28,636 nucleotides of DNA from Parcubacteria group bacterium Gr01-1014_72 (lineage in GTDB: Bacteria; Patescibacteriota; Minisyncoccia; Phycocordibacterales; VMFH01): assembly GCA_007375925.1 (NCBI GenBank), contig VMFH01000001.1, positions 1-28,636 of the forward strand, in the 5' to 3' direction. The translations under genes were made by a program, and so were the position numbers. Numbering within the stretch: position 1 is the first letter of the stretch; every line of letters starts with the position of its first letter. The notes beneath the pieces are model-generated. The model worked only from the letters and a program-made list of their open reading frames with translations. It made no database searches and was not told the DNA's origin. Below, in pieces: positions 2,470-27,358 of this stretch.

Positions 2470-2630
2470 TGATACAAATATACAAATGACATCCGAATCT
2501 ACGAATACCTACAAATCCTCCTTTTTCTTATTCGTAGCCATTTGCAGATTTGTCTCTGATTTGTAGATTAGTATCATACATTTATTTGCAGCCATTCGCA
2601 GATTCGTACCCAATTCGTAGATTGGTATCA
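2470..2630. repeat. Inverted-repeat element C (diverged, empty form, duplicated right arm)
   Basis: Left arm 2470-2516 (47 nt, acRaat units), 13 nt spacer cctcctttttctt, right arms 2530-2576 and 2584-2630; the reverse complement of 2584-2630 aligns without gaps to the left arm. Confidence 0.8.
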
Positions 2631-21839: not shown

Positions 21840-24047
21840 TTAGCGTCTGTGGTCGCCGTGCTGTCCGTGAGGACGATCTGTTCGCGTCCCGGCACTGCTT
21901 CCCGGCGCGCTTCCACGGCGCTTCGCGAAGTCGGGGTCAATGTCCTTGAGCGAGAGGCGAATGCGGTCGCCCTCCACCTCCTTCACAATGACGGGAATCG
22001 TCTCGCCTTCCTTGAGGACGTCCGTTACCTTGTTGATGCGCCACGGCGCGATCTCGGAAATGTGCAGCAGCCCTTCGGTGCTTCCCCCTATTCTAACAAA
22101 TGCGCCGAAATCCGCGATGCGGGTTACCACGCCGTCAAACCGCTCCCCCGCTTTGTACTCGCGCGTCATGTCGGCAATAATCTTCGCCGCTTTTTCCGCC
22201 GTGCCGTTCTTTCCCGTGATGAAGACAGAGCCGTCGTCCTCAATGTCAATCGCGTCAACGCCGGTAGAATCTTTGATCTCGTTGATCGTCTTGCCGCCCG
22301 TGCCGATGATGAGCCCGATCTGCGAGGGCTTCACCGTGAGGAGAATGATTTTTGGCGCGGAGGGAGAGATGTCCGGTCGCGGTGCCGCAAGTTCTTTTTC
22401 AATTGTATCCAGAATATGATGTCGCGCATCCTTTGCCCGCACGAGCGCCTCCGCGAGAATCGGGAGCGGAATGCCGTCCACCTTCACGTCCATCTGGATT
22501 GCCGTGACGCCGACCCGCGTTCCCGCCACTTTTAAATCCATGTCGCCGTGGTGGTCTTCCGGTCCCTGAATGTCGGTGAGGAGCGCGTACTCATACTTCA
22601 TTTCGCCCTTGGCGGATTTCGCTACGCGGAGCATCAGCCCCGAGGCAATGCCCGCGACCGCGGCTTTGATAGGGACGCCTGCGTCCATGAGCGCGAGTGC
22701 GCTCGCGCAGACACTCCCCATGGAGGTGGAGCCGTTTGAGGAAAGGGATTCGGAGACGATGCGGATGGTATAGGGGAATGTTTCTTTCGGCGGGAGCACA
22801 TGCTTGAGCGCCTTCTCCGCGAGCGCGCCGTGTCCCGTCATACGTCGGTTTGTGCCACCAATGCGACCCACTTCGCCGGATGAGTACGGCGGGAAGTTGT
22901 AGTGATGCATGAAGCGCTTTTTCGTCTTGACCTCCATGCCGTCAATTATCTGCGCGTCGCCGGGTCCGCCGAGCGTGAGCGCGGAGAAGATGTGTGTCGC
23001 GCCGCGATAAAAGATGCCGGAGCCGTGGAGGATTGGGGAGATGCCGCCCGCTTTGGCGAAGAGGGGGCGCACGTCGGTTAGTTTCCGTCCGTCGGCGCGG
23101 CGCGCCCGCATAATCGCCTCCTCGTGAATGAGTTCAGAAAGTTTATCCTCAAAAAAGTTGTCAGCGATGCTAGGTTTCTGGTCGGGAAACTTCTCCAGAG
23201 CGCCCGCGAGCCACTCCCGCTTCAGTTCATTGATGTGCTCGCCGCCCGTCTTCCCTATGAAGATGCGCTTCATAAAGGTTGGTGCAATCTTCTCCTCAAA
23301 CAGCGGCGGCATTTCCGGCGGCATTTCCGGTTTCGGAATCACAATTTTCGCCTTCGCGCGCAGGGCGATGATTTCTTTTTGCCACGCCTGTACCCGCTCA
23401 ATCTCCTCGCTCGCTCGCGTGAGGCCGTCCACGATGACACCCTCCGACATCTCCCGCCCGTCATTCTCAATCATATTGATGTTGCCGTCCTTGCCGCAGA
23501 CGGTCTGCTCCATCTCAAAGATTCCCTGCTCGCGGTCGGGGTAGGTCGGGTTGACGATGAACTCATCCCTCCCCTCAAACTTTCCGATGCGCACCCCCGA
23601 GACCGGCCCGTTCCACGGGATGTCTGAAGTGCCAAGTGCGAGGGATGCGCCGATGACGGCAAGGATGTCGGGGTCGTCTTCGCCAAGCGAGAGGATAGTG
23701 ACGACGACCTGTACCTCATGGCGGACGTGGCTGTCAAAAAGGGGCCGGATGGTGCGGTCCACGATGCGTCCCGAGAGTATGGCCTCATCCGAAGGCCGCC
23801 CTTCCCGTCGGATGAAACGGCTCCCGAGAATCTGCCCCGAGGCGTAGAAGCGTTCTTCGTAATCAACGGTGAGCGGGAAGAAGTCTCCCCCGCCCTCGCG
23901 GGGCTTCGTTCCCATGACGGCAGTTATGAGTACCACGGTGTTCCCGTAGCGCATCAAGACCGACCCGTTCGTCTGTTCCGCCAAATCATTAAACTCCGCG
24001 ATGAGCGGTTTGCCCCCGATCGGGAGCGAGTATTCTTTTTTCTTCAT
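21840..24047 (-). CDS. pnp: Polyribonucleotide nucleotidyltransferase (PNPase)
   Basis: FFPLTVDYEER, R.VDRTIRPLF, RRADGR, HYNFPPYS.GE, RR..GHGALAE, SNGSTSMGS.C, GDMDLKVAG, then KH and S1 domains. Confidence 0.98.
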   Translation of the reverse strand: MKKKEYSLPIGGKPLIAEFNDLAEQTNGSVLMRYGNTVVLITAVMGTKPREGGGDFFPLTVDYEERFYASGQILGSRFIRREGRPSDEAILSGRIVDRTIRPLFDSHVRHEVQVVVTILSLGEDDPDILAVIGASLALGTSDIPWNGPVSGVRIGKFEGRDEFIVNPTYPDREQGIFEMEQTVCGKDGNINMIENDGREMSEGVIVDGLTRASEEIERVQAWQKEIIALRAKAKIVIPKPEMPPEMPPLFEEKIAPTFMKRIFIGKTGGEHINELKREWLAGALEKFPDQKPSIADNFFEDKLSELIHEEAIMRARRADGRKLTDVRPLFAKAGGISPILHGSGIFYRGATHIFSALTLGGPGDAQIIDGMEVKTKKRFMHHYNFPPYSSGEVGRIGGTNRRMTGHGALAEKALKHVLPPKETFPYTIRIVSESLSSNGSTSMGSVCASALALMDAGVPIKAAVAGIASGLMLRVAKSAKGEMKYEYALLTDIQGPEDHHGDMDLKVAGTRVGVTAIQMDVKVDGIPLPILAEALVRAKDARHHILDTIEKELAAPRPDISPSAPKIILLTVKPSQIGLIIGTGGKTINEIKDSTGVDAIDIEDDGSVFITGKNGTAEKAAKIIADMTREYKAGERFDGVVTRIADFGAFVRIGGSTEGLLHISEIAPWRINKVTDVLKEGETIPVIVKEVEGDRIRLSLKDIDPDFAKRRGSAPGSSAGTRTDRPHGQHGDHRR

Positions 24048-24051
24048 TATA

Positions 24052-24169
24052 ATCCCAATCTACAAATTGTATCCAAATGCTACAAATATTATAGAATCCT
24101 AATCTACAAATCTGCATCCAAATGCCGCAAATTATTCGGATGAGTGCATTCGTAGCCCACTATTCGGAT
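24052..24169. repeat. Inverted-repeat element D (same acRaat/attYg family)
   Basis: Tandem arms atcccaatctacaaattgtatccaaatgctacaaat (24052-87) and atcctaatctacaaatctgcatccaaatgccgcaaat (24096-132), then complementary attcggat/attcgtag units (24134-169), just upstream of pnp. Confidence 0.7.
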
Positions 24170-24283
24170 ACGGAGTGATCTGCGGATGGGAGACTTGAAC
24201 CGACCGTTCAAATCTGTGTATCCGAAGACCACGCCCGTCTAATAATGGAGAGTAGTGTAGCAGAAACAACCACGCCGCGGTAT

Positions 24284-24311
24284 TTGACAAAATAAATCAT
24301 TTATGTAATGT
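24284..24311 (+). promoter_or_regulatory. sigma70-type promoter with no convincing downstream CDS
   Basis: TTGACA (24284-89), 16 nt AT-rich spacer, TAATGT (24306-11). Confidence 0.55.
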
Positions 24312-24314
24312 GGC

Positions 24315-24620
24315 TATAGAGTTTTGTGAATTTGCGGCAGGAACGAAGCTCGCGGAAGCGAGGAGCGTGTGTAAGCCGTTCGGTAATACGAGGTTGCCCC
24401 TAGGTTGGGCAGAGGTAACACTCTCAGCAAAGGCGGCGGTAGCCGCGGTCGTCGAATGGACTAAGGGACCCGCATGTCGGCCGGCGATATGTTTCTGAAT
24501 GCGCATCGGTAAGGAGGTGCGCAGACCGAATTCCCCACCTCGGGGTCTGGCTGAGCGTTTCTTCCGCGATTGGAGGGTGGACCGTGCTCCACCCTCCTCA
24601 ATTTCTCTCGCTCTCTATAT
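24315..24620 (+). ncRNA. Candidate structured ncRNA, family not recognised
   Basis: Promoter upstream, terminator downstream, 5'/3' closing helices and at least 7 internal helices, with G-U pairs that work only on the plus strand (details in findings). Confidence 0.55.
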
Positions 24621-24649
24621 CTTGGTATCCCGCACACGCCGAGAATATC

Positions 24650-24676
24650 AACGGCTTCCCCACGGAGCCGTTTTTT
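24650..24676 (+). terminator. Intrinsic terminator
   Basis: aacggcttcc-ccac-ggagccgtt followed by further Ts. Confidence 0.75.
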
Positions 24677-24770
24677 GTAACCCCCGTGTCAAACCTGCCG
24701 GGTCGACACGATTTTTTGCCTCTGTAGAGGCGTTTTTATCCAACGTTTTTTATCCCGCGCGGGCGGTGTG

Positions 24771-25016
24771 TCACAAATTGTATGTCGTGTCGCTACGGCG
24801 GTCTATTTCAATTTCAACAGCCCTCCCTTTTTCATCAAGTGAGAAAAGAATTCTGATATCTCTCTTGCGAATGCGGTAACGGTTGGGCAAACCCTCTAGT
24901 TTTTTCATGCTAAGACCGGTAAAGTCGCCCACTACAATGCGAGCGAGGAGCATAACAATAATGGTACGACGTTTTCCATCAAGCTTTTGAAGGAATTTTT
25001 GTATTTTGTCCGGCAT
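24771..25016 (-). CDS. RelE/ParE-superfamily toxin
   Basis: 81 aa, basic; KFLQKL, KKLEG....YRIRKRDIRILF; overlaps the upstream antitoxin. Confidence 0.85.
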   Translation of the reverse strand: MPDKIQKFLQKLDGKRRTIIVMLLARIVVGDFTGLSMKKLEGLPNRYRIRKRDIRILFSLDEKGRAVEIEIDRRSDTTYNL

Positions 25017-25251
25017 TGAAGCGATGAATTGCGGACAGTAATTGTTCAGCGGTTATTAATTTCTCCCGTCCTTTTGTGAGGTCAAGAAGTGTTTCCCATG
25101 TTCCTTCATCTCCCCACTCGTCCACGGGTGTAATTTTGAATGCCGGTTTTGAACGCCGGACGACAACGAACGATTTCCCCCTCCCGACCGCCCTGATGTA
25201 GGTTTCGGTGTTTTCGCGCAGTTCTTTGAGTCCGATGATGTTCGTTTTCAT
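24979..25251 (-). CDS. Phd/YefM-family antitoxin
   Basis: IIGLKELREN...YI..V..G.SFVV.RRSKP.F.I.P N-terminal Phd pattern. Confidence 0.85.
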   Translation of the reverse strand: MKTNIIGLKELRENTETYIRAVGRGKSFVVVRRSKPAFKITPVDEWGDEGTWETLLDLTKGREKLITAEQLLSAIHRFNAGQNTKIPSKA

Positions 25252-25261
25252 ACACAAAAGA

Positions 25262-25288: not shown

Positions 25289-25317
25289 TTGACAAAAACG
25301 TTTGTTAAGCTTATACT
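25289..25317 (+). promoter_or_regulatory. Near-consensus sigma70 promoter for the HAD gene
   Basis: TTGACA (25289-94), 17 nt spacer, TATACT (25312-17). Confidence 0.85.
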
Positions 25318-26224: not shown

Positions 26225-26725
26225 ATGCGGGAACAGAAATATGCAGTGGTCTTTGACTATGAGAGTGCGGTTGTCACGGGTACGGGGGAACTTTTACGGA
26301 GACTAACACCCTCCTTTCACTTTGCTGTTCTCTCCCCGTTTTCTATGGAGGAAACTGGCAAGAAACTTCGGAAGGTACTGGGGGACGATGCGGTTGTCAT
26401 TGAGCACATAGTCTCCCACAAAGGCCTTCCCCAGCAAAATGTTTGGGAGTTCTTGGAAGGCATGGGGCTACTCAATGTAAAACCTGAAAACACTGTTTTC
26501 ATTGGGAGTCTCCCGGAACGAGTTTCGGCCGCGGCCGCGCGCGGTATGACCGTCATCGGGCGCCACAACAATGCATGTACTGATGATGCTCTCCGCGCGT
26601 GCGGCGCAAGCTACATCCTGTATCAGTACCGGAACCTCACACCGCTTACCGTTCACCAGGTTCTGCAAAATGTGGAAGACCGGAAATGTGCGAGGTCCGT
26701 CCCTGCCGTTCCTGTGTCGGTCTAA
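26225..26725 (+). CDS. Degenerate HAD-like protein
   Basis: GGAGGT before ATG 26225; AVVFDYES (second Asp of motif I lost), VKPENTVFIGS..ERV.AAAARGM.VIG, L..CGA.YI. Confidence 0.75.
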   Translation: MREQKYAVVFDYESAVVTGTGELLRRLTPSFHFAVLSPFSMEETGKKLRKVLGDDAVVIEHIVSHKGLPQQNVWEFLEGMGLLNVKPENTVFIGSLPERVSAAAARGMTVIGRHNNACTDDALRACGASYILYQYRNLTPLTVHQVLQNVEDRKCARSVPAVPVSV

Positions 26726-26748
26726 TTGCCTAATTGATGAGCCGCACA

Positions 26749-26788
26749 AAACCCCGAAGCGACTTGACCGCTCCGGGGCTTTTCTTTT
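26749..26788 (+). terminator. Putative intrinsic terminator
   Basis: ccccg/cgggg and agcg/cgct stems followed by cttttctttt. Confidence 0.6.
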
Positions 26789-26842
26789 CCCGTTTCTTCC
26801 CTCTCCCTTTTCGCTAAATGCTAAACGCTTTACGCTGTCACC

Positions 26843-27358
26843 CTACCTCCCCCTCCCCAGAAGATACTTTCTCGGATTTTCATCAAGGTCAATGAAGTCG
26901 TCAGTTGCCTCGCGCAGTTTCTGCGAGGTGGATTTGCCGAAGGCGATCACTTCTACCTGGCAGCCCTCGTTTGTTTTCAGATACTCAACGAGCGGCACGA
27001 AGTCGCCGTCGCCGGAGACGATGATGACCGCGTCAAGCTTGGGTGCGAGCTTGATCGCGTCCACCGCAAGTCCGACATCCCAGTCCGCCTTCTTGGCGCC
27101 GCTCCCGAAGACGATGAGGTCTTTCGTTTTGGTCTCAATGCCCGCCTTTGCGAGCGCCTCAAAGAACGCCTTCTCCTCGCCGGACTCCGTCGTGATGACG
27201 TACGCGACCGCGCGGATGAGTGCGCGGCCGTCCACCGCATCCTTCACGACCTGGCCGAAGTTGACGTTTGCGCGGTAGAGGTTTTTTGCGCTGTGGTAGA
27301 GGTTCTGCGTGTCAATAAAAACGCCGACACGCTGGTCTTTATGTTTGATGATACTCAT
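26843..27358 (-). CDS. NYN-domain (LabA/DUF88, PIN-like) protein
   Basis: VFIDTQNLY, KADWDVGLAVD, SGDGDFVPLV, L...G..VEV..F..STS..L....D.FIDL. Confidence 0.93.
   Translation of the reverse strand: MSIIKHKDQRVGVFIDTQNLYHSAKNLYRANVNFGQVVKDAVDGRALIRAVAYVITTESGEEKAFFEALAKAGIETKTKDLIVFGSGAKKADWDVGLAVDAIKLAPKLDAVIIVSGDGDFVPLVEYLKTNEGCQVEVIAFGKSTSQKLREATDDFIDLDENPRKYLLGRGR

Follow-up and report, generated by a model that had tools for sequence, protein, structure and literature searches.

The window analyzed here is a 28,636-nt stretch of DNA (VMFH01000001.1, contig C51 of the source genome, G000) from Parcubacteria group bacterium Gr01-1014_72 (GCA_007375925.1), and the RNA locus situated in it between pnp and a toxin-antitoxin pair is almost certainly a genuine stand-alone gene encoding a structured non-coding RNA of an uncatalogued family. 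Judged by sequence comparison, this RNA family is new: it is not catalogued in Rfam 15, and the same predicted fold recurs in six other members of the candidate phyla radiation (CPR)/Patescibacteria. The assembly (570 kb, 80%-complete, 54% G+C) is the sole representative of its taxonomic family among the species genomes searched, and the RNA region is single-copy in it. The available indications are that the DNA came from groundwater. Taken as a whole, the best explanation, which we regard as probable, is a stable, stand-alone, trans-acting structured RNA of this uncatalogued family with a ribonucleoprotein-type mechanism, a function that we infer.

Complex-folded bacterial RNAs of at least 300 nt are few, and RNase P RNA, transfer-messenger RNA (tmRNA), signal recognition particle (SRP) RNA, group I and II introns, and riboswitches have revealed basic biochemistry; the orphan RNAs OLE, ROOL, GOLLD, and raiA are active research targets. 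Patescibacteria account for much of bacterial diversity, and most have never been cultured; for genomes as pared down as theirs, a non-coding gene of 300 nt is a considerable outlay. With its defined fold, clear boundaries, and small, tractable size, the RNA described here offers a concrete object for structure determination and the search for partners.

Homologs of the RNA in other Patescibacteria

Homologs were searched for with two covariance models, R1, for which the window copy and its predicted fold were the only input, and R2, built from two sequences; a separate six-sequence model of the core domain was also built. BLAST of the RNA region gave no match in 60 relatives, and BLASTN and nhmmer gave none in 80 metagenome loci around pnp homologs, where R2 returned a single weak partial match (75 nt, 12.6 bits, E 0.05). 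Synteny with pnp is not conserved. Homologs with covariation were recovered by the covariance models. R1 gave a full-length match (74.8 bits, E ~1e-22) in G003, which belongs to the same order but to another taxonomic family; the two copies are ~45% identical over the alignment, and 38 of the 102 pairs differ on both sides yet stay paired. R1 alone detects four homologs at 55–83 bits, and the family is therefore independent of iterated models.

A pattern derived from the longest invariant block was scanned over 185,579 species genomes and yielded nine loci, three of which were confirmed by R2, namely those in RA.bin66 (120 bits), in a metagenome-assembled genome labelled Candidatus Saccharibacteria (118 bits), and in H51-bin326_1 (65 bits). 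Two more members, G351 (54 bits) and G430 (73 bits), came from covariance searches in the vicinity of these genomes and in a phylum-wide sample; G430 is a complete 1.14-Mb genome of another class. The family members are G000, G003, G298, G299, G300, G351, and G430, which represent at least two Patescibacteria classes and score 54–337 bits with R2 (homologs 54–120 bits). The arrangement that characterizes the family is a promoter, the P1–P11 fold with its conserved blocks (GAAG, CUCAGCAAAG, GUC-N5-GAC-UAAG, GAAUG, and GAAUUCC...GGGNNNGGCUGAGC), and a terminator after it. Pairwise identity among the copies is uniformly 43–63%, without grouping, and the RNA has a G+C content of 39–57%, depending on the carrier.

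An earlier note on this DNA, made from the sequence, had described the open reading frames (ORFs) of the region as not protein-like, and this proved correct: there is no Pfam match on either strand even at E≤10, and the reading frames are not conserved. A pseudogene or small-protein reading was rejected, as the frame running through the CUCAGCAAAG block meets a stop in G003 and codes for unrelated peptides in G299, with no Pfam match. A repeat or miniature inverted-repeat transposable element was likewise rejected, the region being unique in the genome, with only the upstream arms at 24051–24125 repeated.

Conserved fold and covariation

The features of the RNA locus, with helices numbered P1 to P11, are listed below.

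24284–24311, plus strand: predicted sigma-70-type promoter (TTGACA, 16-nt spacer, TAATGT), start expected near 24316–19
24313–24622, plus strand: full covariance-model match (R1, R2); the family core, P1 to terminator hairpin, is ~24330–24605
24315–24329, plus strand: 5′ strands of outer helices H1/H2, partners at 24608–24619; 80–88% of cells paired, membership doubtful
24332–24345, plus strand: 5′ strand of P1, pairing with 24556–24569; 12 of 13 pairs change on both sides, 94% of cells paired
24346–24348, plus strand: junction AAG; belongs to GAAG, a block without variation among the seven copies
24349–24362, plus strand: P2 hairpin, ctcgc-GGAA-gcgag; 5 of 5 pairs covary, loop sequence varies among copies
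24363–24381, plus strand: P3 hairpin; 7 of 7 pairs covary, 98% of cells paired
24382–24422, plus strand: P4 hairpin arm, starting with conserved G(G/U)AAU
24394–24412, plus strand: P4 tip, ttgccc/gggcag, variable or absent in some copies
24423–24432, plus strand: 5′ strand of P5, CUCAGC-AA-AG, pairing with 24547–24555 (CU-G-GCUGAG); nearly invariant, closes the core domain
24433–24446, plus strand: P6 hairpin, gcggc-GGTA-gccgc; 4 of 5 pairs covary, insertions of 49–60 nt in two homologs
24447–24450, plus strand: 5′ strand of P7, GGUC, pairing with GACC at 24524–24527; pair types GC/AU and UA/CG/AU/UG
24451–24466, plus strand: P8 mini-hairpin, GUC-GAAUG-GAC, then conserved UAAGG; GUC/GAC is UUC/GAA, GCC/GGC, or CCC/GGU elsewhere
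24472–24492, plus strand: P9 hairpin, catgtcg/cgatatg; 8 of 8 pairs covary
24495–24523, plus strand: conserved CYGAAUG, P10 (tgcgcatc/ggtgcgca, 24500–24523), and terminal conserved CAG
24528–24546, plus strand: invariant GAAUU, P11 (CCCC/GGGG, 24533–36/24542–45), and UCUG junction
24572–24597, plus strand: 10-bp perfect hairpin at the position of the family's intrinsic terminator; all 10 pairs covary
24650–78, 24686–24717, and 24717–38, plus strand: three tandem terminator-like hairpins with T tracts, two called by the scanner and all read directly

In the seven-sequence alignment, 78 of the 102 modelled pairs change on both sides and stay paired. Standard pairs make up 91.8% of cells, as against 37–43% when partners are slid by 1–3 columns and 66% in column shuffles, and none of 500 shuffles reaches any observed pairing measure. 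Because this alignment was fitted to the model, the test was repeated with structure-blind MAFFT and RNAalifold, which recovered, without any model, P5, P6, P8, P9, P10, P11, and the terminator with compensatory changes (for P10, 7 of 8 stem pairs covary in the structure-blind alignments, and its tip has insertions of 20–70 nt in other copies). They also proposed P7 (24447–50 with 24524–27), which is better than the model's original partner: all 28 cells are paired in the seven sequences, compared to 20 of 28.

Of the 334 alignment columns filled in four or more of the seven copies, 43 are invariant, and these cluster at junctions and internal loops. P1 holds the two ends together and closes a five-way junction, P1–P5, whose sole unpaired bases are the invariant AAG; P5, identical in six copies and carrying two compensatory changes in G430 (CCUAGC/GCUAGG), closes a second domain comprising P6, P7 (which encloses P8, P9, and P10), and P11. 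Conserved junction and internal-loop bases of the second domain are AAAG, UAAGG, CYGAAUG, CAG, GAAUUCC, and UCUG, and hairpin tips are variable, with insertions of up to ~70 nt tolerated. The invariance of the GAAUU/P11 block is partly due to ascertainment, since three members were found by a pattern from that block; G351 and G430, found by covariance model only, retain GAAUU(C/U)CC and GGG. Overall, the conservation pattern looks like that of a defined three-dimensional core presenting a conserved surface.

Nearly all of the helices listed in the earlier note can be read directly in the sequence, including the 24329–45/24556–71 helix, ctcgc-GGAA-gcgag, ttgccc/gggcag, gcggc-GGTA-gccgc, catgtcg/cgatatg, tgcgcatc/ggtgcgca, and ctcagc/gctgag, and compensatory changes in the six homologs keep all of them except two. 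The first, tatagag/ctctata (24315–21/24613–19), does pair in this sequence but probably lies outside the family fold. The second, agacc/ggtct (24523–27/24544–48), has 34 of 35 cells paired and may represent an alternative conformer, but, being in competition with P7 and P11, was kept out of the main fold. The segment 24524–27 (GRYY) is also able to pair with 24544–47, and in G351 all three segments change together; an alternative conformer around 24524–27 is possible.

The minimum free energy fold of 24310–24680 (−149.2 kcal/mol) reproduces almost all of the listed helices and has a z-score of −2.28 relative to dinucleotide shuffles, 1 of 100 shuffles being as good. The z-score of the minus strand is only −1.30. 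The core alone folds at z −3.2, and five of the seven family copies reach −3.2 to −6.8.

Gene boundaries

Both transcription signals proposed at the outset are present: TTGACA (24284–89) and TAATGT (24306–11), separated by 16 nt, are read in the sequence as a predicted promoter, and the terminator at 24650–76 is found by direct reading and by the terminator scan. A near-consensus −35 box (TTGACA/TTGACT), a 16–17-nt spacer, and a TAnnnT-like −10 box occur in five of the seven copies, equivalent predicted promoters being located just upstream of P1 in G003, G299, G430, and G351. The promoter position in the five copies places the start a few bases before P1; in the window, the −10 box lies ~12 nt further upstream than in other copies.

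At the other end, six of the seven copies have a hairpin after P1 followed by five to seven U, that is, an intrinsic terminator. In the window copy, this is the hairpin at 24572–97, with a poor U tract (UCAAUUUCUCUC); the perfect 10-bp hairpin described earlier exists, but as the family's intrinsic terminator and not as an internal helix. If it leaks, the hairpins at 24650–24738 are likely to provide the 3′ ends. In G003, G299, G298, and G430, the predicted −10 box falls inside the 5′ segment of H1/H2, and the 3′ partner lies beyond the U tract of the terminator, which makes the outer helix 24315–21/24613–19 doubtful for the family.

Comparison with known RNA families

A cmscan search of the whole window against Rfam 15 returned nothing at gathering thresholds and only noise at E≤10 for 24000–24900, and none of the five family copies compared (this one and homologs) matches Rfam 15. 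The suggestion of a novel or highly derived non-coding RNA is thus supported by the lack of a significant Rfam match together with homologs showing strong covariation. The literature on structured RNAs of CPR/Patescibacteria contained nothing relevant that we could find.

Among housekeeping RNAs, the new RNA resembles RNase P RNA in size (300–400 nt), in ends sealed by a terminal helix, in nested junctions with one nearly invariant helix, in peripheral stems of varying length, and in having its own promoter and terminator among housekeeping genes. However, the RNase P model (RF00010) finds nothing at the locus with the threshold relaxed to E≤10, the P4 signatures are missing, and the source genome has a separate, full-length RNase P RNA on contig C59 (11139–11506, 46 bits, E 1e-13). 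RNase P RNA above the cut-off was found in G003 and four relatives. The C59 copy itself is unusually divergent, with 46 bits against a type A cut-off of 100, compared to 103–129 bits in five relatives.

For tmRNA (RF00023), ARAGORN finds none in the window and no complete one in the whole assembly. The smpB gene lies on contig C12, and ~300 nt downstream of it a partial match to the tmRNA model (positions 56–185) runs to the contig end (C12:2183–3097); the tmRNA gene was probably cut there by the assembly end. With RNase P RNA on C59 and smpB with a tmRNA fragment on C12, these two housekeeping RNAs are accounted for. The check for housekeeping RNAs elsewhere in the genome was therefore positive for these two, but not for the SRP and 6S RNAs.

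The latter raise the question of whether the new RNA could be a highly derived SRP or 6S RNA missed by Rfam, which we consider very unlikely. Small SRP, large SRP, and 6S RNAs are undetected in G000 by Rfam models, and the variable housekeeping gene context is like that of ffs and ssrS, both of which speak for such an origin; like the SRP (4.5S) and 6S RNAs, which are trans-acting, protein-binding, and encoded by stand-alone genes, the new RNA has no fixed surroundings. The same blanks occur across the lineage, however. The small SRP model gives nothing at E≤0.1 in eight other Patescibacteria (five 99–100% complete genomes of the order and three carriers), and the large SRP and 6S models give nothing in the same five genomes, in all of which RNase P RNA is found; the SRP and 6S searches were positive in most control genomes. 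The failure is thus a property of the lineage or of the models and not evidence on the RNA locus. Apparently, the SRP RNA of this lineage lies outside current models, and these blanks show how poorly the RNA complement of the phylum is catalogued.

At the locus itself, cmscan at E≤10 against all SRP families (RF00169, RF01854, and others) and 6S families (RF00013) is empty. P2, the sole hairpin with a GGAA cap, carries another loop in most of the other copies, so there is no helix-8-like hairpin of the kind that is GNRA-capped and has internal loops, and the covarying fold consists of two multi-helix junctions, not of a 6S-type rod with a central bubble. Moreover, an essential RNA is expected to be near-universal, whereas sensitive models find the new RNA in ~1–3% of genomes searched, which is far too patchy, and no Ffh M domain was detected in the 80%-complete assembly.

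Group I and II introns give no Rfam match, and the flanks are intergenic, with the RNA's own predicted promoter and terminator; the GACUAAG element resembles the group I J8/7 motif. The orphan RNAs OLE, ROOL, GOLLD, raiA, and HEARO are all in Rfam 15, and none of the five copies matches them. The new RNA is nevertheless like them in being a stand-alone or loosely linked non-coding gene with covarying multi-helix junctions, conserved junction nucleotides, variable tips, a narrow and patchy range, and a function unknown or partly known. It is smaller than OLE, ROOL, and GOLLD, for which three-dimensional structures have been described (PMC12286853). In contrast to raiA motif RNA (~200 nt, near raiA), OLE (Oap proteins), and HEARO (IscB), it has no fixed partner, and it differs from the whole group in its range, having been detected in Patescibacteria alone and in no viral contig. 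As for retron RNA, omega RNA, bridge RNA, trans-activating CRISPR RNA, and the RNA partners of defense-associated reverse transcriptases, the Pfam annotation of the seven loci contains no such enzyme gene.

Genomic context and distribution

Neighbors identified by Pfam differ at all seven loci and are ordinary housekeeping genes: pnp and RelE-Phd; sigma-70-like and uvrA; TatD and methionyl-tRNA synthetase; histidine phosphatase and a thioredoxin-like gene; DHH and a hypothetical gene; a hypothetical gene and NUDIX; MscL and KhpA. The divergent arrangement with pnp emphasized in the earlier note is real in this genome but incidental, since neighbors change in every genome. Two 121-aa ORFs directly upstream of the RNA at loci L100 and L094 are unrelated to each other. 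In G003, the gene divergent from the RNA (L088:253–1356) is a second sigma-70-like gene with regions 2 and 3 only; it is 33–35% identical to other sigma genes of G003 and its family-mates and has no close ortholog in the latter.

The orientation of the following gene bears on the reading as a cis-acting leader or riboswitch, which would use the terminator after P1 to control a downstream gene. A P1-closed domain immediately followed by a terminator does resemble a transcription-terminating riboswitch, and at three of the seven loci the following gene points the same way as the RNA. In the other four (window, G299, G351, and G430), however, it converges on the RNA, the downstream genes are unrelated in all seven, and in the window three extra terminators follow the RNA, with no plus-strand gene before the next promoter at 25289. 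This reading is largely refuted by orientation and is, in our estimate, extremely improbable. Varied neighbors, the RNA's own promoter and terminator, and the converging gene in four loci point instead to a stand-alone, trans-acting RNA.

The distribution counts come from samples, and weak members may escape the stricter filters applied to large batches, so that absence here refers to the genomes searched. Of the 39 nearest relatives, G003 alone yielded the RNA (six-sequence core model, lax filters). Carriers numbered 1 of 150 genomes sampled order-wide, 0 of 150 class-wide, 1 of 150 phylum-wide, and 1 of 39 relatives of G299. The RNA was not found in two family-mates of G003, nor in a congener and three other family-mates of G430. 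So scattered an occurrence prompts one to ask which features, present or missing, set carriers apart from other genomes.

It also suggests a relic or cargo of horizontal transfer, that is, an accessory, possibly selfish or defense-related RNA that moved alone or with an element since vanished. The absence from the searched family-mates of G003 and from the congener of G430, an insertion site that differs in each genome, and the proximity of the window copy to the RelE/Phd pair and a repeat-arm element favor this explanation, which we nonetheless consider quite unlikely. The RNA is single-copy, no integrase, transposase, recombinase, reverse transcriptase, or Cas gene lies near any of the seven loci, and two core-motif patterns gave no match in viral contigs. 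Low, uniform identity (43–63%) and the G+C range of 39–57% suggest that the RNA has long resided in each lineage and was not transferred recently. Both an ancient RNA with many losses and old transfers are conceivable.

Proposed role of the RNA

In the reading that we prefer, a sigma-70-type promoter would start transcription a few bases before P1, and the intrinsic terminator directly following P1 would end it, giving an RNA that measures ~290 nt between P1 and the terminator hairpin, and as much as ~360 nt on read-through to the 24650–78 terminator, with both ends locked in one long helix. This RNA would act in trans, either within a ribonucleoprotein, as its scaffold or RNA subunit, or by sequestering a protein, and would be recognized by its invariant helix P5 and the bases at the junctions; action through base-pairing with mRNA or regulation of neighboring genes would not be expected. 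A protein-binding or ribonucleoprotein role is favored by the sealed ends, the constitutive-type promoter, the conserved junctions and P5, the free peripheral stems, and the independence from neighbors, and it is put forward tentatively, as a suggestion that could well prove wrong.

Several observations weigh against this view. A look for RNA-seq or metatranscriptome runs of this DNA turned up none, the source DNA run alone containing the sequence, so that transcription and the ends of the RNA are deduced from sequence signals, and the −10 box of the window copy is weak, matching the consensus at three of six positions and not being called by the promoter scanner. Two of the seven family copies fold no better than shuffles, and the covariation counts come partly from model-fitted alignments, the seven sequences being insufficient for a formal test of the R-scape type. 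The analysis found no conserved neighboring or co-occurring protein, which leaves the ribonucleoprotein reading without direct support, and the very patchy occurrence is unusual for a core cellular ribonucleoprotein.

The conserved core also invites comparison with catalytic RNAs, in which two nested junctions and P5 would form a catalytic core acting on the RNA itself or on other RNA. Invariant junction nucleotides together with one helix kept in sequence, the rest being free to vary, are seen in catalytic RNAs, P4 of RNase P RNA, for instance, being nearly invariant, and the segment 24524–27, with two like-sequenced partners and all three co-changing in G351, hints at a conformational switch. 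A ribozyme is nevertheless unlikely, as no known ribozyme family in Rfam 15 matches and no conserved cleavage-site signature or substrate was identified. A broader possibility, rather unlikely in our judgment, is an ancient Patescibacteria-specific RNA with an undescribed catalytic or ribonucleoprotein function, maybe involving a switch of 24524–27 between 24447–50 and 24544–47, retained in scattered reduced, host-dependent lineages.

Flanking genes and other features of the window

The genes on either side of the RNA locus are as follows.

21840–24047, minus strand: pnp, with RNase PH, KH, and S1 domains (Pfam)
24771–25016, minus strand: RelE/ParE-like toxin ORF, 81 aa, recognized by its C-terminal pattern, no Pfam match; the antitoxin ORF overlaps it and lies upstream
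24979–25257, minus strand: Phd/YefM antitoxin (Pfam)

Together, the Phd/YefM gene and the RelE/ParE-like ORF (24771–25257) are, by their predicted products, a type II toxin-antitoxin pair. Between the start codon of pnp and the RNA promoter, two overlapping copies of an A/T-rich repeat with acaaat-type units occupy 24051–24125; the repeat matches contig C26:4910–4958 at 90–95%, and a 14-mer is shared with window positions 2558–2571. Further downstream, a NYN-domain ORF at 26843–27358 on the minus strand (Pfam E 6e-38) overlaps a longer plus-strand ORF without a family (26571–27278), and the NYN gene is likely the real one of this overlapping pair (26571–27358).

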